This document shows, one piece after another, positions 9,439 through 58,015 of a stretch of 64,000 bases of DNA. The translations under genes were made by a program, and so were the position numbers. Below the pieces are notes generated by a model. It made no database searches. It was not told where the DNA came from and saw nothing but the letters and a program-made list of their open reading frames with translations. Location of the stretch: IMG/VR virus record IMGVR_UViG_3300009788_000088; one strand, written 5' to 3'. Source of the DNA: a virus. Within the stretch, counting starts at the first letter, position 1. Each line of letters starts with the position of its first letter.

Positions 9439-12054
9439 TTAACATTTCGAATGACCACAATCTACACAGTTGATACACCCTTCAGCCATCCTCAGTTTAC
9501 CACCACACTCCGGGCAAGCGCCAAGGAACTCCTGTAGATTCTCATCTTGTACAAACCGCATGAGGAACTTCTTGATATGATAAACGAAAGACCCCACACC
9601 AACGTTCACCGTATCCAGTGCCTTGATAGTTTCAATGATCGGAACATTATGACGACATAAGAGTCCAACCATCCGGCATATCTTGTCCACGTTTGATTGA
9701 ACGGCCGCTTTCTCTTGTGTCTCTACAATCCGTTCCTCTGGAATTCCATGGGACCGGGCCAGCGTTTCCATGACTTCCACAGCCTCTTCTGCCCACACAT
9801 TCTTCTCACGTGAATTGGTAGAAGCGAAGATTGCAAAAGGCGCTGTCATTTGCTTATCCTTAAAACAGATATGGAGATACCATTTCCGTCCTTCTGACTT
9901 GATGATAAAACCACGGGCCGGATATTCATCTGGTAAAGAAACCTCTTTGAAAACCTCTCCGTTCTCATGACCATCAAAATTCTTAAGAAATTCCCGTATC
10001 TGCTTCTTGGCAGACTTGGTACGCTCTTCAGATTGGGCTTTAGTCTCCAACACAGCCGCTGTGGTGCCCTCTCTATATGTGGTAATACCACGGACACCTT
10101 CAACCCACAAACGTTCCCACAGGCCCTTGTAATCATCCAGAGGGTAATCCCTGTGAAGGTTTACCGTCTTGGACACAGAATTGTCTACATACTGAGAGAA
10201 AATAATAAATGGTGAGAGGTGTTCAGACACATCCAGTTCATGGGCAGACACGAAAATACCCCTCTCCTTCAATTCTTCGAAGTTGGGTAAGTTCTTCTTG
10301 GCCCATGCATACCCGTAGTCTTCACAGTAGATTCTCTCCCTGAATCCGTGATTGGGGTCCAGCATGAAGTTCCCATCCTCAGTCATCAGAACTTCCTCAT
10401 CCCCAAGCTTGACCTTCTTGAAACTCTTGGTCGGGCTGTAATCTCCGTTCACGAAGTCTGGGAAATCCAGTTTATACTTTTTTGCATACCATTTCCAGCG
10501 GTGTGTCTCAATGACCCAACGATAATATTCTTGTTCGAAGACAGGCTCCATACCCCCGGAGACCAGCCCCATGAAAACGCCAGTATTCCCAGTAGGCGCA
10601 CAAGTGGAGAGTTGGGCATTCCTAAGTCCATTTTTGAATATACCTTGACGTTTCCATTCTTCTATAAAGACATCATTGGCAAGAGGTCCGTTGGCTAGAT
10701 AACCTTCTTTCCATATCTTAGCCATATCACAAAGCGGAAAAGCTCCTTTTTCTGTAGCCAAACCCGCCGAAATTTTATATTCATTGCGGCTTTTGTAAGT
10801 AAGAAGCATTGTGGTAAATGTGTTTGCGTCCTGTGAACCGTACCTGAGTCCTAACATGTAGAGCATAGAACCATAACCCAAAACCCCTACCCCGATTTTC
10901 CGGCGGAGTAAGGCGGCGTTCTTTAACCCCTCTAAAGGATACCCGGAGATATCAATAAGGTTATCCAAAGCCCGGACCAAAATGGAGTTGTCCTGTCTGA
11001 ATAACTCCATATCAAATTTAGGGTAACCGCTTTCTTCGTCTACCGAAACATACTGAGTCATGTTGTGGTGACCAAGATTGCAAATGTCACCAATATGATC
11101 CAGCCCTTTGGCATGTCCGGCGTCACCAATCATCCCTATCTCCCCACAGGGATTTGTAGTGCTGACCTTGCCGTGATACCAGAGGTTGTTATATCGGTTG
11201 GCGGCATCCTTGAACCAGATACCGGGTTCATTCCTCTTGTACATGGACTCCATGAGAATGTCCCAAAGGTCACGGGCCGGGATGGTCTCATAGACCTTAC
11301 GGGGGAAGTCATTACTCTCCCATAAATCAAAATCACCGTTCCAGTGCTTGTCATAATCTTTCCAATTAATATCCGGAAACCAAAGCTCCCAGTCAGCATT
11401 TTTGGACAGGGCCTTCATAAACTTATCTGTCACGATGACAGACATGTTGAATTTGGTCAGAACATTCGGAATGTTTTTGGCTTTAATAAACCGAAGTATC
11501 TCCGGATGAGAAATATGTAGCATCCCCATCATGGCACCCTTGCGTACCCGGCGCTTCGGGTTCACATCTGAAGGAACCTGTGTGTACTCTCCGCCGGGAT
11601 GACCTTGAGTCATTATCTCAGATGACTTATCATACAGTTCCATGAATTTGGTTACGCCGGGGGTGCCCACTCCAATACCTTTAATGAAAGTTCCTTGTGG
11701 CCGGAGATGAGAAAAATCGAACCCAATTCCACCCTCCGTCTTCAGGATGTGAGCGGCATTGGTCAAATCTTGGTAGATATTCGCAATAGAGTCCACAGGC
11801 TTAATAGCACGTTGGGCTCCGTAACAATTAAAGTTAGAGGTGTTTTTATAATGGGTTCCTACATTAGCCACGATACGACCGCCAAAGGATATGCGGCGGT
11901 TGATAAGTGCAAGATAGAGTTGATCTCTATACACCCCATCTTCCCCGGCCATAATGGTATTGGCCAGACGTGCCATTGTATCTTCAATCGTTTCATTGCC
12001 GTACTGGTAGTTTTCCCGCCAGATTTGTTCAGAGAACGGGTTGTCAAAAAACAT
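9439..12054 (-). CDS. nrdJ: Class II (adenosylcobalamin-dependent) ribonucleotide reductase
   Basis: FNC, TNPCGEI, ICNLG, APTG and SGGMEP motifs; C-terminal CPEC...EGC-x2-C-x2-CG-x-SKC zinc ribbon typical of NrdJ; no nrdB nearby. Confidence 0.9.
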   Translation of the reverse strand: MFFDNPFSEQIWRENYQYGNETIEDTMARLANTIMAGEDGVYRDQLYLALINRRISFGGRIVANVGTHYKNTSNFNCYGAQRAIKPVDSIANIYQDLTNAAHILKTEGGIGFDFSHLRPQGTFIKGIGVGTPGVTKFMELYDKSSEIMTQGHPGGEYTQVPSDVNPKRRVRKGAMMGMLHISHPEILRFIKAKNIPNVLTKFNMSVIVTDKFMKALSKNADWELWFPDINWKDYDKHWNGDFDLWESNDFPRKVYETIPARDLWDILMESMYKRNEPGIWFKDAANRYNNLWYHGKVSTTNPCGEIGMIGDAGHAKGLDHIGDICNLGHHNMTQYVSVDEESGYPKFDMELFRQDNSILVRALDNLIDISGYPLEGLKNAALLRRKIGVGVLGYGSMLYMLGLRYGSQDANTFTTMLLTYKSRNEYKISAGLATEKGAFPLCDMAKIWKEGYLANGPLANDVFIEEWKRQGIFKNGLRNAQLSTCAPTGNTGVFMGLVSGGMEPVFEQEYYRWVIETHRWKWYAKKYKLDFPDFVNGDYSPTKSFKKVKLGDEEVLMTEDGNFMLDPNHGFRERIYCEDYGYAWAKKNLPNFEELKERGIFVSAHELDVSEHLSPFIIFSQYVDNSVSKTVNLHRDYPLDDYKGLWERLWVEGVRGITTYREGTTAAVLETKAQSEERTKSAKKQIREFLKNFDGHENGEVFKEVSLPDEYPARGFIIKSEGRKWYLHICFKDKQMTAPFAIFASTNSREKNVWAEEAVEVMETLARSHGIPEERIVETQEKAAVQSNVDKICRMVGLLCRHNVPIIETIKALDTVNVGVGSFVYHIKKFLMRFVQDENLQEFLGACPECGGKLRMAEGCINCVDCGHSKC

Positions 12055-12135
12055 TATGAGACTCCTGTTGGGATAAGAGGCGGGGAGGGAAACCGGAGTC
12101 TCCCTCCCCTATGGGCGTGGCAGAGGGGCTATGGC

Positions 12136-13230
12136 TTATCCTTTAGAATCCTTCAATTTCTTGAAGAATTCCGCATCAGGATCATTTTCCTCCGAGGTTT
12201 CCGGAAGTGTTTCGGTGACACTGGCCTCTTGTTCAACCTTCATTTCTTCCCCGAAGGTTTGAATCTCTGCGGTCTGGACCGCAGGAGTTTCCGTCTCCGG
12301 TGGGGAATCGGGCGGTGTGTTTGACGGAGTTTCGGGAGGTGTATCCGGGGCCTTTCCCCCATCCTGTTCTTTGAGCCATGCGGCCAGACCGGAATTATCC
12401 CCAGCATCAACTTTACCGCCGTCTCCGGCTTCTTGTTCGGCACGGAGCATCTTGTCGAAGATGTCCGGCTCGTTGGCATCTCGCATAAACTTCTGGAGAC
12501 TTTCCAACAGAACCTCTCCGCTCTTGAACCGGGACTCTTCCCCAAATTCATCAAGATCATAGACCATACCCAGTACGGCCTGAATCTTCTTACCATCACC
12601 ACCAAGGAACGGAGCGGGGGTCATGAAGGAACAGTTGTCATAATTAGCACGTTTGTCCTTCGTAGCGACCTCAACAATAAAGTCAGCGCCTGTCAGGAGA
12701 TTAAAAGGATTGACACCTTCAATATTCAGTTCCGGGTCGTTCTCCAATTTGCTCATGAGTTTGTTAAAGACAGTGACACCGAACTTCCAGAGCTTCACCT
12801 TACCGGTGTTTTCCGGGTGAACAGAGTCCTTGATAACGAACACGTTGGCTACGTACTGCTTCTTGCGGTAGAACGTGTACGCAATCTGCTTTTCCGGAGA
12901 ACCATCCGGGGCTTTCCAATAAGGCTTGGTTGCGATACAAATATCACACTCCAGCCCGATAGTGGCGGGACATAGTTCCCAGAAAAAACGTCCGCCTCTT
13001 TCTATCCTATGATAGAAGTTGGGAACAAAAGGAACTTTTTTGTCCTCCAGAGGCATCTGGGGCAGGAACCGTACAAGGTGACGGCCCTTTCCATCAGACC
13101 CCCTGTCTGGATACCACGTCTTGTTATCATCAAACCCCGTGGGTGTGGCCTCATCCTTAGCATCCCGGACACTCTCATCCAATTTGCCCATCTGTTCAGC
13201 TAAATACTTATCAAAATCCGTTTCCATCAT
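12136..13230 (-). CDS. gp32: T4 gp32-like single-stranded DNA-binding protein
   Basis: VRFLP, CPATIG-x2-CDIC, ENTGKVKLWKFG, NPF, GADF and NYD motifs; acidic tail ending AEFFKKL; start moved to MMETDF (AAGGAG RBS). Confidence 0.93.
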   Translation of the reverse strand: MMETDFDKYLAEQMGKLDESVRDAKDEATPTGFDDNKTWYPDRGSDGKGRHLVRFLPQMPLEDKKVPFVPNFYHRIERGGRFFWELCPATIGLECDICIATKPYWKAPDGSPEKQIAYTFYRKKQYVANVFVIKDSVHPENTGKVKLWKFGVTVFNKLMSKLENDPELNIEGVNPFNLLTGADFIVEVATKDKRANYDNCSFMTPAPFLGGDGKKIQAVLGMVYDLDEFGEESRFKSGEVLLESLQKFMRDANEPDIFDKMLRAEQEAGDGGKVDAGDNSGLAAWLKEQDGGKAPDTPPETPSNTPPDSPPETETPAVQTAEIQTFGEEMKVEQEASVTETLPETSEENDPDAEFFKKLKDSKG

Positions 13231-36792: not shown

Positions 36793-37031
36793 AAATCAAC
36801 CTCAAAACAGTATAACTTAATATGCGAATTTTCTGGTTCGCCGGGTTGGACGTAAAATTCTAGCCGCTCTACCTCATACTTCCGAATGATACCTTTGATG
36901 TTCACGAGAAGCCGTTCTCCCGATTTCGGTAAAACGGATAGATGAAAAGTGGATATGGGAGCATTCCCATCCATCAAAAAAACTTTTATCATACCGTTGA
37001 TCCTTCTTGAAAGTCTGGACTCTTTCTCCAC
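36789..37031 (-). CDS. Hypothetical protein
   Basis: Overlap chain. Confidence 0.5.
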   Translation of the reverse strand: MEKESRLSRRINGMIKVFLMDGNAPISTFHLSVLPKSGERLLVNIKGIIRKYEVERLEFYVQPGEPENSHIKLYCFEVDL

Positions 37032-37504
37032 CCCGATGGTTCATGTTTCAACCTATTCCCCGTTTGATCAATAAAAGATGCCTGATCCTCATCCCTCAGA
37101 GGTTCCATGGCTTTGTGCATCCTCATAATGATATCAAAAAGATCGGAGTTATCACCTTCCTTGGCCCGTGCAATACAAACCTCCAAAGGCACATCAAAGA
37201 CCGCCCAGATAATCCGAGGGTGCATCATACGCCACATGATCCGGCGCTTCTCTGTGGTGTTAGTAGCATCGATAATAACTCCCCGGTGTCCAGCTTCATA
37301 CAGGGCACGGGTCATAGTCTGGGCGATACCCCACACCATAGGTTCAGCATCCCCATAAAAAGCTTGACCGTGAAGGGCCAACCGGATAGCGTCCGGGTTG
37401 ACGATAGCGTATCCTTTTTCCTTGGCCATCTTTTTGGCCCATGTGGATTTACCGCTCCGGGGGAGACCAATGGTCACTATCATAAGGGTTGACGGGTCAA
37501 TCAT
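36989..37504 (-). CDS. Polynucleotide kinase-like P-loop protein (AAA_33), kinase domain only
   Basis: GLPRSGKSTWA, NPDAIR, IIDATN and CIAR motifs. Confidence 0.85.
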   Translation of the reverse strand: MIDPSTLMIVTIGLPRSGKSTWAKKMAKEKGYAIVNPDAIRLALHGQAFYGDAEPMVWGIAQTMTRALYEAGHRGVIIDATNTTEKRRIMWRMMHPRIIWAVFDVPLEVCIARAKEGDNSDLFDIIMRMHKAMEPLRDEDQASFIDQTGNRLKHEPSGWRKSPDFQEGSTV

Positions 37505-47143: not shown

Positions 47144-47234
47144 TGGTGGAGAGGGGAGGATTTGAACCTCCGTGTTTACCCAGTGGGACCAGATTTACAG
47201 TCTGGCGCAATCAACCAAACTCTGCCACCTCTCC
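47144..47234 (-). tRNA. tRNA-Tyr(GTA)
   Basis: CCAGA-CTGTAAA-TCTGG; long variable arm; ACCA. Confidence 0.94.
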
Positions 47235-47243
47235 ATAAAAGTT

Positions 47244-47457
47244 CGTGATAGTGTGCCGGATTCTCACCGGGGAGCATCGCCTATTTAAGTAATTGCCGTC
47301 TACCGTATGGTCACCGACAGCACTTCGGCTCTGGGCCGGGATAGCTCTCCAATTTATTTAATTTTGGTGGAACACTGAGCGCTCTTAATATGTGCGATGA
47401 AAGCAGAGCAAGCACCGCAAGCCATTTTTATTCGCTCCATGGCTCCACACTATCACG
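47244..47457 (-). ncRNA. Structured ncRNA candidate E1 (about 214 nt)
   Basis: 12-bp terminal stem CGTGATAGTGTG/CACACTATCACG, with a T-loop-like hairpin CCGG-TGAGAAT-CCGG next to the 3' strand. Confidence 0.7.
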
Positions 47458-47479
47458 GGACATCCAAAGACGCCCCATT

Positions 47480-47707
47480 TTACAGAGTGACACCTTGCTT
47501 CACAAGATAATCACCCAACGGCTTACCTTTCTTATCCAACCAGTCAACGACTCGTTGGCGAATCCTTTCCTTGCGGGTGGCGGCCATACGGCGGCCACCG
47601 TTCAAGTCAGCAAGAAGTTCTTCACTGAAGCCCTCTTCGATATGCTTGAACTTGGTAAGGATATAGGCATTGGCAAGCTGTTTGTCTGTTGCACCTTTTT
47701 CAGACAT
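47480..47707 (-). CDS. Hypothetical protein
   Basis: AGGAGG RBS. Confidence 0.6.
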   Translation of the reverse strand: MSEKGATDKQLANAYILTKFKHIEEGFSEELLADLNGGRRMAATRKERIRQRVVDWLDKKGKPLGDYLVKQGVTL

Positions 47708-47733
47708 GATACTACCTCCTAATGAAAGGGGGT

Positions 47734-48138
47734 TTAGTTTCCCCCCATTGGTAAGGAAGGGTCGCTCTCCTTATCATCAGGATTGGAGTTCTGGTTTCCA
47801 CCCTCCTCATTACCCTCTCCGGGAAGATTTTCACTCCCAGTCGGTTCCGTGGATTCTTCTTCCTCTGGGGGTGAAAGCACTTCATCTTCCCGTGCTTTCT
47901 CATACGTTTTCATGAAAAAATTCACCTGACCCAAAGGCCGTTCAATTGCCTTGCGGACGTGATGGGGCAAAACCTCACCAAATCCTGTGACAGCCTCAAC
48001 TGTCTCTGCAAGAGCTTCCGTAATGTTTGCAAGAGCTACCACCTTTAATTCAGTGTTCTCTTCCAGAACATCATCCACCAACTGCTTCACTTGCTCCATG
48101 ATATTTTCCTCCTTGTTAAGAGCATAATAATGTTTCAT
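47734..48138 (-). CDS. Hypothetical protein with an acidic tail
   Basis: RBS present; directly downstream of the tmRNA. Confidence 0.6.
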   Translation of the reverse strand: MKHYYALNKEENIMEQVKQLVDDVLEENTELKVVALANITEALAETVEAVTGFGEVLPHHVRKAIERPLGQVNFFMKTYEKAREDEVLSPPEEEESTEPTGSENLPGEGNEEGGNQNSNPDDKESDPSLPMGGN

Positions 48139-48159
48139 GACTAAACTTCACCTCCTATT

Positions 48160-48470
48160 GGATAATAAGGAAGGAGGCCCAACCCCGTAGCCACCTAAGC
48201 GGCCATTTCTACAGGTGCGTTGGCACTTGTAAGAGTGGGCTTGATTAACGTGGGCCAGCCCACCCACGGGTCTTCCAGCATACCTCATCCGCCATGTCGA
48301 AACCATTTCACCCCCACCCCTCCATATCCCGGAAGTCTTATTGAGTCTCCGCTAATGAGGCGTCAGCGTCTCACTAGGATACAGAGGGGTGGAGGTGCTG
48401 AGAATCGAACTCAGGTCCACAACGTTTCAGTATACCTTCTGTGGCCGAAGCCACGGCGACCAACATTGAT
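48160..48470 (-). ncRNA. ssrA: Circularly permuted (two-piece) tmRNA, tag (A)ANAPVEMAA*
   Basis: Acceptor piece ...GGACCTGAGTTCGATTCTCAGCACCTCCACC (ends about 48388) lies upstream of the coding piece GGGGGTGAAATGGTTTCGAC (starts 48315); G3:U70 pair; tag frame 48224-48195; outer ends approximate. Confidence 0.88.
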
Positions 48471-48507
48471 TGAATGTCTACTGCATAGACATTCATGAGG
48501 TAAATCC

Positions 48508-48666
48508 GAATCCATGTAGGCTTCTCCAGCGAAACTGAAGGAAGCAAAAGTTAGCATCTTTTTTAACAGGCCCAGCTTCCAACCCCCTGCTATTGTTTAG
48601 GACGGCCTACAACAAAGCGCCTTATTGTAGGATAGTATTGCTCCGCTGGAGAGCCTACATGGATTC
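48508..48666 (-). ncRNA. Structured ncRNA candidate E2 (159 nt)
   Basis: 23-bp terminal stem with one bulge (GAATCCATGTAGGCTCTCCAGCG) enclosing two hairpins. Confidence 0.7.
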
Positions 48667-48671
48667 AAAAA

Positions 48672-48802
48672 CGGTGGGAGGTGGGGTTCGAACCCACATT
48701 AGCAAAATGGCCAACCCTTACTTCCTATTCCAGAGACACTCCTTTCATGACAGTAATTTGCTGTCCCTACTCTCAGTATCCCACTTTTTGGATGACTCCC
48801 AC
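48672..48802 (-). ncRNA. Expanded tRNA-like RNA E3 (about 130 nt)
   Basis: Acceptor GTGGGAG/CTCCCAC, T-arm GTGGG-TTCGAAC-CCCAC, D-like ATCC/GGAT; branched region in place of the anticodon arm; no encoded CCA. Confidence 0.75.
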
Positions 48803-48812
48803 ATAAATTAAA

Positions 48813-48934
48813 TTCAAAGTTGGTTACCAGCACTGGCCTTCTGTCTCTTTAGGCTAGAAGGTGCACTCAGATAAGGTGGGAAGCTATCCCACTAACCGGC
48901 TTAACCCTGCCCTCAGTTAGAAACCAACTCTGAA
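48813..48934 (-). ncRNA. Structured ncRNA candidate E4 (122 nt)
   Basis: 13-bp terminal stem TTCAGAGTTGGTT/AACCAACTTTGAA (G:U on the minus strand) with internal hairpins. Confidence 0.65.
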
Positions 48935-48937
48935 ACT

Positions 48938-49023
48938 TGGTGGCGGGAGTCGGATTTGAACCGACGTTACCTTTCGGTGCTGGGATATGAACCCAGTGAG
49001 TTTGACCACTACTCTATCCCGCT
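48938..49023 (-). tRNA. Initiator tRNA-fMet(CAT) with a long variable arm
   Basis: A1xC72 mismatch; GGG/CCC in the anticodon stem (CTGGG-TTCATAT-CCCAG); extra arm ACC-GAAA-GGT; ACCA. Confidence 0.85.
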
Positions 49024-49032
49024 ATAAAACGG

Positions 49033-49145
49033 TGTTCCTGTATGACTCTAAGGTAGCTTGTCATCAGCCATGCATAGCCTTTGATAGCAGACCCCTAAGT
49101 GCCTTACGGTTCCGGTGGACCCGATATATCCTTAGTACAGGAACA
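49033..49145 (-). ncRNA. Structured ncRNA candidate E5 (113 nt)
   Basis: 10-bp terminal stem TGTTCCTGTA/TACAGGAACA. Confidence 0.6.
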
Positions 49146-49149
49146 TAAT

Positions 49150-49270
49150 TGGCTGGGCCGACAGTGGGTGGCATATAGCTCCGCTCTCCAGCATTCCGTT
49201 GTGGTGGCCTTACCACTCGGTTTTCTACTTTCGACAATCAGCTTCAAACTGATTGCTCTGTCCAGCCCCA
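49150..49270 (-). ncRNA. Structured ncRNA candidate E6 (about 120 nt, ends in GCCA)
   Basis: Terminal GGGCTGGACAG/CTGTCGGCCC pairing; internal hairpin CAATCAG-tttgaag-CTGATTG. Confidence 0.6.
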
Positions 49271-49280
49271 TAACTTTTAT

Positions 49281-49663
49281 GGAAACCAAGAACTGGTCGG
49301 AGGAACATTCTGGGATTGTTCCCATGCTCTTCTTAGATTTGTGTTTTCCGCCACGATTCAAGGTCTTGTTCCGGGATGGCCATCCCATACTAAAGCACCC
49401 CTACTGGCAAGATCGAAACTTGCACCCCCCGGCACACCCAGTGATATATCATATCGACTGTTTACGAAGGGACCAGACTACTAAGTCTCCAGCCTTGAGA
49501 TGAACTTGAGAGACCGTTCGTTGTGCGTTACACTCTTCAGAGATTCGCTTGCGGCCGGATAACCCAAGGCGGCGCAGTCCCCGCAGTTCCCTACAAAGAC
49601 CCTACCAGCCCACATTACACCCTGTGCGGGATGCATTCTGTCACCGACCAGTTCTTGGCTTCC
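49281..49663 (-). ncRNA. Large structured ncRNA candidate E7 (383 nt)
   Basis: 20-bp terminal stem GGAAGCCAAGAACTGGTCGG/CCGACCAGTTCTTGGTTTCC; many internal hairpins, including the T-loop-like GCAAG-TTTCGAT-CTTGC. Confidence 0.75.
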
Positions 49664-49679
49664 TAACATTCTTTCCATT

Positions 49680-49799
49680 CCTACCATGTAAAGACCCGAC
49701 CTCCCGTGGGAATCCAGCGGGTTGCTACAGCCCTTCAAACGCCGTCTCGTTATGCGTACTGCCCACGATAGCAAAGAAGTGGGGTCTTTACATGGTAGG
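49680..49799 (-). ncRNA. Structured ncRNA candidate E8 (120 nt)
   Basis: Perfect 18-bp terminal stem CCTACCATGTAAAGACCC; nested CGTGGG/CCCACG; starts 1 nt after the tRNA-Cys CCA. Confidence 0.7.
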
Positions 49800-49800
49800 G

Positions 49801-49874
49801 TGGACACGGCGGGGAGAATTGAACTCCCTTATCTGGATTTGCAATCCAGCGCCTAACCGATTGGCTACACCGTG
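49801..49874 (-). tRNA. tRNA-Cys(GCA)
   Basis: CTGGA-TTGCAAA-TCCAG; U73; CCA. Confidence 0.92.
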
Positions 49875-49943
49875 TTGCCAGAACTCCATACTACTCTTTA
49901 GTTTTCAAAGATCAATGCTACAATACAAATATAACTATTTTTC

Positions 49944-50243
49944 TTAAGATGTCAAGTCTAAAAGTTCTATTAATTTTTCGTTCGCTTCCTTGATGATTTC
50001 AGCCATTTCATCGTCTATATCTTCTGTGTAAGCAGACACTCTAAAATCCTTCGGCCAGAATTTTCCGCCGAATCCCAACCATCCTTGGAACCTCCACTCG
50101 TTGGTTGGTTCGAATCTTCCCATCTCATGAACGAATGCGGAACGTTCGCTGGACCTTGCTCCACAGACTTCAACCAAAATGGTATAAATCTGATTGGCAA
50201 ACGTTTCGTTCAATCCCATATCAAGATGTTTCGGTATTTTCAT
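49944..50243 (-). CDS. Phage hypothetical protein
   Basis: Start MKIPKH with an AAGGAG RBS; EWRFQGWLGFGGKFW motif. Confidence 0.65.
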   Translation of the reverse strand: MKIPKHLDMGLNETFANQIYTILVEVCGARSSERSAFVHEMGRFEPTNEWRFQGWLGFGGKFWPKDFRVSAYTEDIDDEMAEIIKEANEKLIELLDLTS

Positions 50244-50688: not shown

Positions 50689-50844
50689 ATACTTTTTAAG
50701 TTTAACTATTTGTCTGTCAAAGTCAAGTAAAATGTTTTCAGTTCTAGCGGCCCATTTATCCATTCCAACTTGTCTCATACATTTGATAGCCGCTTTCAGA
50801 TGGTCACGGGCTTCGAATACTGGATTCTTATTTTTCTTGAACAT
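50668..50844 (-). CDS. Small hypothetical protein
   Basis: Start MFKKNK with a GGAGGT RBS; the 3' end overlaps tRNA-Asn. Confidence 0.45.
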   Translation of the reverse strand: MFKKNKNPVFEARDHLKAAIKCMRQVGMDKWAARTENILLDFDRQIVKLKKYSGIAQR

Positions 50845-52308: not shown

Positions 52309-52956
52309 TTATAAAAGAACATGGCCCGGATGACCGTATCGAAGCTCATTAATAATCGAGTGAGTCACTTCCTTTGTTTCATCAATAGAGGTCTGCATAG
52401 CATGACCATAATCCAAAACATAGTCCCAGTTACGGTACTCCCACATGTCTACCTCAGAAGCGTGTGCGTTCTCCACTGGAACAACACGAGGACGTGGGTC
52501 CGTAAAAATCAATATTCCACCCAACTCGTTTTTAATAGCAACGAATTCATCATTGAACCGAACATCTGGACAGAATATAATTCTGTTCTCTCCCAACCGC
52601 TTGTTTTCCTCTATGAGATTGGAACATGTCAGATAAAACTTATCAACCCATATACGGATTTTGAACTCGGTATGCAGAACACCGTCCCGGAACATTTCAG
52701 TTCCTACTTTCTGGAGAGCCACACGTGGGGAGATTCCCCAGTATGGGTCCACAGTCTCCTTATACTCATAATCAGAATCCATACGTTCCCGGTCCCAACC
52801 AAACAGGTTGGCCACTAAGTCCTTGAGAGGATCAGCAAAGCGGATAGTTGTGGTCCTTATCCCAGCCTCATGGAATATCTTCTCCATGATACCTTTAGCC
52901 ATATCCTTTCCCCCCAACTTGGCGGATGAAAGTCCAATAACAATTTGTTTATTCAT
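52309..52956 (-). CDS. Deoxynucleoside monophosphate kinase (gp1-like)
   Basis: GGKD, FADPLK, PRVALQKVGTE, DVRFNDE and HASE motifs. Confidence 0.92.
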   Translation of the reverse strand: MNKQIVIGLSSAKLGGKDMAKGIMEKIFHEAGIRTTTIRFADPLKDLVANLFGWDRERMDSDYEYKETVDPYWGISPRVALQKVGTEMFRDGVLHTEFKIRIWVDKFYLTCSNLIEENKRLGENRIIFCPDVRFNDEFVAIKNELGGILIFTDPRPRVVPVENAHASEVDMWEYRNWDYVLDYGHAMQTSIDETKEVTHSIINELRYGHPGHVLL

Positions 52957-57145: not shown

Positions 57146-58015
57146 TTATTTCTTCTCTCCCCAAGATACTTTAAGCCATTCCTGTTCTAATTTTCTCATA
57201 GTGACTTTATCGGGGAAAGCATCCTGATAATATTTTCCTTTGGTAAGTTTGAGTGTTTTTATGATATCCTTACCGATAGGATTCCTTAAAGGAGCGGTGA
57301 TAAATGAAGCCCCCACCTTCCGGAGTTGTTTCAATTCAACCTCTACCTGTGGGTTAGTTGGATCACCCAGATCAATCATGGCATCAACCTCTTTAAAATG
57401 CTTACCGAAAAGTTTATCATATTTTCCAGTCAAAGCCATTTTGTTGATTTGTTCCCACGTATCCCGAAGCATTTTTTTATCAACTGTCCGGTAACGTTCT
57501 TCATTCCTCTTTAACGAAGTTTCAAGGTCCACGTTAATGAACACCCCAGATACGTCATATCCAATCTTTTCTAAAAACTCTTTTTGTTTATTGAGGCGGC
57601 CGGGGTTTTTCCCGGTTCCATCAATGATGATAGGAAACATTCCATTAACCCAGAAAGCAAATCGCTTGGACGTGAGAGGTTTCACCCTTTGCTCTCTATA
57701 ATCCCGAATTTCTGGGCGATTCATATAATCCGCCGTAAAAACCTTCCCCAACTTCCCAGCCTTCACATCCCGCATAAGCTGAAGTACCTGACGGGTATCA
57801 GCCAAGTGATTAGGATTTCCGGTGATATAGTTGTTGAACAAAACCATTTCAAAAATATCATCAGAGTTAAGCGTTACCGCTCCCATACCCCCAAACATCT
57901 TACTAGAGAAAAAAGATTTTCCAGACCCCGGAGCACCTACCATAAAAACGGCCTTGAACAGATTCTTATCATTGATGGACTCTGTATAAAATTGTGAAAA
58001 AGTTACCAGTTCCAT
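57146..58015 (-). CDS. Zeta-toxin-like P-loop kinase with a CTS-like N-terminus
   Basis: GAPGSGKS, NSDD, IIDGTG, GYDV and SLKRNEER motifs. Confidence 0.8.
   Translation of the reverse strand: MELVTFSQFYTESINDKNLFKAVFMVGAPGSGKSFFSSKMFGGMGAVTLNSDDIFEMVLFNNYITGNPNHLADTRQVLQLMRDVKAGKLGKVFTADYMNRPEIRDYREQRVKPLTSKRFAFWVNGMFPIIIDGTGKNPGRLNKQKEFLEKIGYDVSGVFINVDLETSLKRNEERYRTVDKKMLRDTWEQINKMALTGKYDKLFGKHFKEVDAMIDLGDPTNPQVEVELKQLRKVGASFITAPLRNPIGKDIIKTLKLTKGKYYQDAFPDKVTMRKLEQEWLKVSWGEKK

Follow-up and report, generated by a model that had tools for sequence, protein, structure and literature searches.

The window analysed here is the whole 64,000-nucleotide stretch of IMG/VR virus record IMGVR_UViG_3300009788_000088, and the element under study is a 383-nt RNA, unit E7, which lies on its minus strand at positions 49281–49663, between the genes for tRNA-Cys and tRNA-Met(CAT). 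A highly structured RNA of this length had previously been proposed here in a first-pass annotation of the sequence; the coordinates given there are exact, and the strand is the minus strand. Comparison with the full homologue carried by a second phage, on a 13.6-kb Logan contig (L001), indicates that E7 is a genuine non-coding RNA gene of a T4-like phage, and we regard it as very probable that E7 is a real structured non-coding RNA. E7 is a previously uncatalogued large structured RNA, while the general phenomenon it exemplifies was already known. The functional evidence is strong for two sequences, and the clade is tiny. Taken as a whole, the best explanation of the data, in which E7 would be an excised stable RNA that acts in trans as a binder or scaffold within a translation module, is in our judgement likely.

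A long closing helix and a consensus fold common to two phages

The two ends of E7 are joined by a closing helix, P1, in which 49644–49663 pairs with 49281–49300. As the first-pass annotation had described, this helix has 20 base pairs; 19 of them are Watson-Crick and one is G.U. The G.U pair exists on the minus strand alone, the plus strand having an A.C mismatch in its place. When the whole 64-kb window was searched for inverted repeats matching at at least 19 of 20 positions within 560 nt, only those of E7 and of the neighbouring unit E8 were found, and ten shuffles gave none; the terminal inverted repeat of E7 is not a product of chance. The minus strand of E7 folds with −150.5 kcal/mol (z −4.9 against shuffled sequences), compared with −123 kcal/mol (z −3.7) for the plus strand, and folding of the L001 copy gives a z of −3.4.

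A consensus fold was derived by RNAalifold from two sequences, the window copy and the L001 copy, and comprises 113 pairs over 383 columns. In its architecture, P1 encloses a 5' domain of three hairpins (A–C) and a central multi-branch domain that is closed by the long-range helix D and contains hairpins E–H. The parts of the fold are given below, with alignment columns in brackets and changes counted against L001.

49644–49663, minus strand: 5' strand of P1 (columns 1–20); two compensatory changes, one one-sided change and one break
49281–49300, minus strand: 3' strand of P1 (columns 364–383); the L001 rearrangement breakpoint lies just outside
49555–49640, minus strand: 5' domain with hairpins A (columns 24–53), B (columns 54–96; GGAA tetraloop, six G.U pairs) and C (columns 97–109)
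49525–49548, minus strand: 5' strand of helix D (columns 116–139), long-range, with purine-rich internal loops; from the RNAalifold consensus and the minimum free energy (MFE) fold of L001 alone
49326–49351, minus strand: 3' strand of helix D (columns 313–338)
49474–49523, minus strand: hairpin E, variable periphery (columns 141–190); inner helix 149–155/174–180 with three compensatory and two one-sided changes
49425–49471, minus strand: hairpin F (columns 193–239), 97% identical, including a fully invariant 22-nt sub-hairpin
49407–49423, minus strand: hairpin G (columns 241–257); stem invariant, loop UUUCGAU in the window and UUUCGGU in L001
49362–49400, minus strand: hairpin H, variable periphery (columns 264–302); three compensatory changes in the inner helix 277–282/287–292 and one in the outer helix
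49301–49323, minus strand: hairpin I (columns 341–363); 11-nt loop AAUCCCAGAA kept, two compensatory changes and one one-sided change

Hairpins A, B and C were predicted independently in both sequences, and the domain that they form is 96% identical, with one compensatory change, in A. Folding L001 by itself to its MFE also recovers P1, A, B, C, D, F and I, and in both sequences the sub-hairpin of F forms with P of at least 0.7. The paired positions of helix D are invariant between both phages, so that this helix offers no test by covariation. About 21 of the 113 consensus pairs are G.U, and the fold is therefore specific to the transcribed, minus strand. The MFE fold of the window sequence alone contains a different pairing, of columns 55–66 with 250–261 and 83–100 with 232–249, which was rejected in favour of the local hairpins B, F and G because changes in L001 (a deletion at column 90, G236A and U228A) break it and fit the consensus fold.

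The internal hairpins singled out in the first-pass annotation fared differently. GGGAU/AUCCC and GGAACA/UGUUCC are borne out, with three and two compensatory changes, respectively. CCCGCA/UGUGGG is compatible with L001, yet an alternative pairing, with one compensatory change, competes with it. The proposed AGACU/AGUCU hairpin finds no support; its 5' arm belongs to the helix at columns 149–155/174–180 with three compensatory changes.

Compensatory changes and a conserved core

The window and L001 copies of E7 differ at 62 positions, with 12 gap columns in addition, out of 383. All 113 consensus pairs form in both sequences, and 12 of them have changed on both sides (two in P1, one in A, three in E, four in H and two in I). 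The conserved structure among homologues, which the first-pass annotation had named as a check on its proposal, is thus present in L001. As a control, partners were slid by one to three columns, which left 0–2 double changes and about 40% pairing. A fold taken from the window sequence alone gave five double changes against 0–1 in its slid controls; since several helices of this window-alone fold break in L001, the consensus model was preferred.

Conservation is distributed unevenly over the molecule. Between the window and L001, identity reaches 92.8% in the core, which takes in A, B, C, D, F and G over 223 columns; it falls to 60.8% in the peripheral hairpins E, H and I, which still pair, and is 72.5% in P1. 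Four-fold degenerate sites in four neighbouring genes are 53–60% identical between both phages. These alignments indicate that the core sequence is under strong purifying selection, and that the three peripheral hairpins and P1 evolve by compensatory changes. A constrained core combined with near-neutral stems that are kept paired through compensation is the usual signature of a functional structured RNA.

The copies are further separated by five single-base indels (columns 34, 90, 102, 188 and 303) and one 3-base indel. The single-base indels bear on the possibility that the stretch codes for protein through one of the overlapping open reading frames (ORFs) of 94–134 codons on either strand, all of which they break in L001. 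Such frames are open in the window at 49481–49807 and 49104–49388 on the minus strand and at 49099–49503 and 49549–49947 on the plus strand, and one ORF has been called as a 68-aa gene in a public assembly. This 68-aa ORF, however, finds only itself and no relative among 5.8 billion proteins, and the substitutions follow base pairs, not codons. The probability that we leave to a coding origin is negligible.

The same changes can be set against an explanation at the level of DNA, according to which the 20-bp repeats would be the terminal repeats of a miniature inverted-repeat transposable element, or protein sites in a replication or packaging signal. The terminal inverted repeats themselves fit such an element, as does the order of neighbouring units, which has changed between relatives. 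On the other hand, the compensatory changes keep pairing rather than sequence, and the G.U pairs, those of the fold as a whole together with the one in P1, make the fold strand-specific. Besides, nhmmer and two covariance models find one copy of E7 in the window, E7 has no target-site duplication and there is no transposase nearby. We find an element of this sort scarcely tenable.

Known RNA families and the T-loop reading

E7 was compared with the 4227 models of Rfam 15 at gathering thresholds and at a cut-off of E≤10, the filters being relaxed for the isolated 406-nt stretch. Neither the 1.6-kb context nor this stretch nor the L001 copy gave a match even at E≤10; this includes the RNase P models RF00010, RF00011 and RF00373, the group I intron model RF00028, ROOL (RF03087), GOLLD (RF01998), OLE, raiA and HEARO. 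The earlier statement that E7 matches no recognised family therefore stands. CR-I and CR-IV are universally conserved in RNase P RNA, where they form P4. Both CR-I (GAGGAAAGUCC) and CR-IV (ACAGAA...GGCUUA) are absent from E7, the best matches having 3–5 mismatches in both phages, in agreement with what had been noted at first pass. An intron identity was rejected as well: the flanking tRNA genes are intact, no gene is interrupted, and the ends of E7 pair together. The idea of a CsrA sponge was also dropped, the 8–9 GGA motifs of E7 being close to the expectation from base composition.

Alternatively, E7 could belong to a known family (RNase P RNA, group I intron, GOLLD, ROOL, OLE, raiA, HEARO, 6S or Y RNA) and have diverged so far that the models miss it. 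Its size overlaps those of RNase P RNA and group I introns, and a niche in a phage tRNA island is common to ROOL and GOLLD (bioRxiv 10.1101/2024.12.08.627333). Against this, not one of the Rfam models responded to the 406-nt stretch under lax filters or to the L001 copy, the signature motifs are absent, and an RNA whose ends pair together and which interrupts no exons is unlike an intron. Such a hidden membership is highly improbable.

Hairpin G had been read in the first-pass annotation as a T-loop-like element, GCAAG-UUUCGAU-CUUGC at 49407–49423. The hairpin is present and its stem is invariant; the T-loop reading is not borne out. A T-loop has a U-U-C/N-R-A pentamer that stacks immediately on the stem and whose U1.A5 pair is conserved. 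In hairpin G the UUCGA pentamer sits one base off the stem, and the A that a U.A reverse-Hoogsteen pair would require is G in L001. The role at the tRNA elbow that had been derived from the T-loop likewise finds no support, as the loop is off-register and a UUCRA pentamer occurs once in the window copy and nowhere in that of L001. T-boxes, RNase P and the L1 stalk use a platform of two interdigitated T-loops, and E7 has no second T-loop. An elbow binder that takes part in tRNA binding or processing, in the manner of RNase P RNA or a T-box, would agree with the location in a tRNA operon, with the size range of RNase P RNA, and with the 5-bp stem and the 7-nt loop of hairpin G, which holds UUCGA in the window copy. 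It is at odds with the register and the A-to-G change of that loop, with the lack of any RNase P, T-box or tRNA-like Rfam match at E≤10 and with the absence of CR-I and CR-IV, and we hold it to be very unlikely.

Relatives of E7 and the extent of the clade

L001 was reached through gp46, for which it carries the one relative at 64% identity; the other gp46 matches reach less than 41% identity over about one quarter of the protein, and the contigs of two of these low-identity matches (L010–L014) showed neither a tRNA array nor any similarity. The operon of the window recurs in L001, together with the full E7 homologue at about 11104–11478. A third lineage is represented by a 1-kb contig (L008) that was reached via ORF99 and stops 33 nt into the unit after E8; the sequence of these 33 nt differs from that of the beginning of E7. 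Sampling of the clade is very thin.

No match was found by blastn in distant mode when 48900–49900 and 47200–48940 were compared with 50,697 GenBank phages. Seven scans of IMG/VR, with gp46 peptides, the P1 20-mer, two core blocks, the E8 stem pair, a tmRNA (transfer-messenger RNA) block and an E3 block, returned nothing real, and the single IMG/VR match (L005) was discarded as an 18-nt chance match. A scan of JGI metagenomes with a 22-mer gave one match only (L006), likewise discarded, since it spans 22 nt of AT-rich DNA that is unrelated. GTDB genomes, scanned twice with 20–21-mers, gave nothing, and the cluster look-up added no further lineage. Covariance models of two sub-domains, R1 and R2, match only the two known copies of E7.

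ORF99 (49944–50243, minus strand) lies just upstream of the promoter described below and is 88% identical in L001, compared with 64% for gp46. It has a 51% relative in L007 (10001–10297), an unrelated temperate-type phage contig with an integrase; no family and no atlas lead were found for it.

The E7 operon and its phage

The phage of the window is uncultured and T4-like. The window encodes a family-B DNA polymerase, gp46/gp47-type Rad50/Mre11, a UvsW-like helicase, a ribonucleotide reductase and a deoxynucleoside monophosphate (dNMP) kinase, and a T4 portal gene is found further along the contig. The best cultured relatives of the polymerase, at 34% identity, are cyanomyoviruses; the phage is a deep-branching T4-like lineage. 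Nearly all large ORFs of the window are on the minus strand, together with all 24 tRNAs and a permuted two-piece tmRNA (ARAGORN, Rfam). Around E7, the following features were located.

49928–49955, minus strand: sigma-70-type promoter heading the E7 operon (TTGACA, 16 nt, TATATT), 11/12 to consensus
49801–49874, minus strand: tRNA-Cys(GCA), predicted first gene of the transcript (ARAGORN; Rfam RF00005, 59.7 bits)
49680–49799, minus strand: E8, a 120-nt stem-closed unit directly after the CCA of tRNA-Cys (24-nt inverted repeat)
49281–49663, minus strand: E7, the whole 383-nt structured RNA (folding, L001 homologue, inverted repeat)
49027–49273, minus strand: E6 and E5, the next two stem-closed units, ahead of tRNA-fMet
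48938–49023, minus strand: tRNA-Met(CAT), the downstream tRNA of the E7 transcript (ARAGORN, Rfam)
48104–48479, minus strand: permuted two-piece tmRNA, probable last gene of the transcript (ARAGORN; RF04321, 83.9 bits)

The promoter at 49955–49928 is about 50 nt upstream of tRNA-Cys, and E7 lies 265 nt downstream of it. Its −35 and −10 hexamers are kept in L001 and L008, that is, in three lineages including the window. A terminator-like hairpin is found at 48186–48174, inside the 3' part of the tmRNA gene. From this promoter to this hairpin, no further promoter-like or terminator-like site occurs on the minus strand, and a single transcript from tRNA-Cys through tmRNA is proposed for this reason. 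Judging from these signals, its order would be tRNA-Cys, E8, E7, E6, E5, tRNA-fMet, E4, E3, E2 and tmRNA.

Several observations were made on the surrounding region. The promoter design ACTTGAC...AAATAGTTA is present in two copies on the minus strand, at 49928–49955 for the tRNA-Cys sub-operon and at 50699–50726 for the tRNA-Asn sub-operon. The dNMP kinase gene (52309–52956, minus strand) is just upstream of the tRNA array, like gene 1 in T4, and even very distant T4-like phages appear to share this syntenic placement of the tRNA cluster. Two AAA_33 P-loop kinases are encoded at 36989–37504 and 57146–58015 (minus strand), one of them within the tRNA array; AAA_33 is the family that holds the polynucleotide kinase domain, and both window kinases may be RNA-repair enzymes. 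The tmRNA tag reads ANAPVEMAA in the window and ANAPVAMAA in L001, where the tmRNA is at 12120–12471. The L001 tmRNA scores 69 bits on the betaproteobacterial model RF01850, under the model threshold, which hints at a betaproteobacterial host.

Neighbouring stem-closed units

Compensatory double changes against L001 were also counted in the units around E7, with seven in E8, seven in E6, three in E3 and eight in E2; by this comparison, the neighbouring units are likewise conserved structured RNAs. E8 is closed by a stem of 18–24 bp, and its L001 copy is at 10983–11099. In L008 (about 770–960) the E8 stem encloses a different, longer insert, so that it serves as a reusable frame. The order of E5 and E6 is swapped in L001 (11490–11747), with the rearrangement breakpoints exactly at unit ends, which mark the boundaries of the modules. 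No L001 counterpart was found for E4 (48813–48934) or E1 (47244–47457). The structured RNA units behave as cassettes that are shuffled.

E3 (48672–48802, minus strand) is a tRNA-like scaffold, with a 7-bp acceptor-type stem, a canonical T-arm and a long branched insert. When folded, rnaC of T4 (L009, 1909–2047) shows an E3-like layout, with the T-arm beside the 3' end.

Proposed release of E7 and action in trans

We propose that E7 would be made within a polycistronic tRNA/tmRNA precursor and released by endonuclease cuts in or next to P1, with RNase III as the candidate enzyme. Duplexes of 20 bp are typically cut by RNase III, examples being rRNA processing stalks and T4 and T7 transcripts, and by this analogy we rate release by RNase III at even chances. 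What remains of P1 would hide both ends and stabilise E7. The nearly invariant core would then act in trans, through sequence-specific binding or as a scaffold RNA; the most plausible partner is a protein or RNA from the tRNA/translation machinery, which the phage replaces almost wholesale. A role in trans is suggested because conservation of the core goes far beyond what a processing signal requires; any particular trans function, taken by itself, is at best rather unlikely.

A number of points weigh against this account. RNAalifold rewards covariation, so that the count of 12 double changes is biased. Two full-length sequences from one phage clade are compared, and covariation here means pairwise differences. 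Helices B, C, D, F and G are consistent with the data and barely vary, and so contribute no informative changes, and the P1 helix of L001 has a U.U mismatch that leaves 19–20 pairs there. In addition, the transcription, mature size and cleavage sites of E7 are deduced from its sequence, RNase III cleavage is argued by analogy, and the trans function is a proposal.

An RNA that is cut out at P1 might also have no use of its own. P1 would then be an RNase III entry for the maturation of the flanking tRNAs and tmRNA, and E7 a processing or insulating cassette whose excised RNA is a functionless by-product. This would account for the tiling of the region from tRNA-Cys to tmRNA by stem-closed units, the first of which, E8, begins directly after the CCA of tRNA-Cys, and for the differences among relatives, in which units have been gained, lost or swapped or carry other inserts. 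For processing, however, the helix alone suffices, yet the 223-column core is 92.8% identical against a neutral level of 53–60%, and P1, at 72.5%, is less conserved than the core. Three internal hairpins are maintained by compensatory changes, and 383 nt far exceed the need of a cleavage signal. We consider a functionless cassette decidedly unlikely.

A bolder proposal is that E7 is the founder of a new class of large and functional phage RNAs, being either a ribozyme or, like ROOL and GOLLD, a higher-order assembly made of RNA only, and that it acts on or with the tRNA and tmRNA set of the phage; we think this unlikely. Its role might be, for example, processing, packaging, or shielding the phage tRNAs and tmRNA from host tRNA-directed nucleases, and its active or contact surfaces might be the nearly invariant core, the purine-rich loops of helix D and the conserved hairpin loops. 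The reading that we prefer is the one of an excised stable RNA which would serve as a binder or scaffold. The operon of sister modules, the near-complete tRNA set and the tmRNA suggest that this phage lineage brings much of its own translation RNA machinery. Being compact, with clear boundaries, a conserved promoter and a defined core beside covarying stems, E7 is tractable for probing, cryo-EM and cleavage assays.

E7 among the RNAs of phage tRNA regions

Structured RNAs of more than 300 nt other than rRNA, RNase P, introns and riboswitch arrays are rare, and those known so far have been ribozymes, ribonucleoprotein scaffolds or, recently, RNA nanocages. Phage tRNA islands repeatedly yield such RNAs (T4 rnaC/rnaD, T5 RNAX, ROOL and GOLLD), and to our knowledge no function has been assigned to any of these.

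RNase P RNA (RF00010, RF00011) is comparable to E7 in its size range, in the pairing of its 5' and 3' ends in a terminal helix and in its association with tRNA genes, whereas the order of helices in E7 does not fit the P1–P4 scheme. E7 also resembles rRNA processing stalks and phage RNase III sites, in which a long duplex is formed from the flanks of an RNA inside a polycistronic precursor. In such stalks the duplex runs uninterrupted for about two helical turns, which is also roughly the length of P1, with its 20 pairs in the window and 19–20 pairs with one U.U in L001. In contrast to the rRNA stalk, which is removed, the stalk of E7 may partly stay on the mature RNA.

ROOL and GOLLD are among the nearest counterparts of E7. 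ROOL is about 580 nt in length. Lying between tRNA-Cys and tRNA-fMet, E7 occupies a phage tRNA island, the niche of ROOL and GOLLD, and having this niche in common does not prove that it is a member of either family. Both of these RNAs are large and ornate, are encoded in phages and prophages, in many cases close to tRNA islands, and assemble into multimeric nanocages; many GOLLD RNAs exceed 800 nt (bioRxiv 10.1101/2024.12.08.627333). Both are longer than E7.

The other nearest counterparts are found in the tRNA clusters of T4 and T5. In the T4 record (NC_000866), rnaC and rnaD, the species 1 and 2 small stable RNAs, are annotated in the tRNA cluster with function unknown; the T5 record (NC_005859) has seven small stable RNAs and the 719-nt RNAX, again in the tRNA cluster and with function unknown. 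RNAX (NC_005859 40848–41566; L015, 20849–21567) is encoded immediately ahead of tRNA-Arg, with a promoter in front of it; searches gave no Rfam family for it, and it is a little-noticed precedent for large RNAs of phage tRNA regions. Neither blastn nor nhmmer nor the models R1 and R2 revealed any sequence or sub-domain similarity of E7 to the T4 and T5 tRNA regions. Like E7, the T4 and T5 RNAs, among them T5 RNAI–IV, are non-tRNA RNA genes on the tRNA strand within the tRNA cluster of a large lytic phage; they make up a kind of RNA and no family of homologues. In T4, as in the phage of E7, this cluster is downstream of the dNMP kinase gene. They differ in that rnaC has 139 nt, with a tRNA-like scaffold and a T-arm, and rnaD 119 nt, compared with the 383 nt, the 20-bp terminal helix and the lack of any tRNA-like part in E7. 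The first-pass annotation's candidate for a new large ncRNA class was right in that E7 is a large structured non-coding RNA of no catalogued family, and overstated in the word class, with two sequences in one clade. Altogether, E7 is a new family, of two sequences so far, within a known kind, the stable RNAs of phage tRNA clusters.

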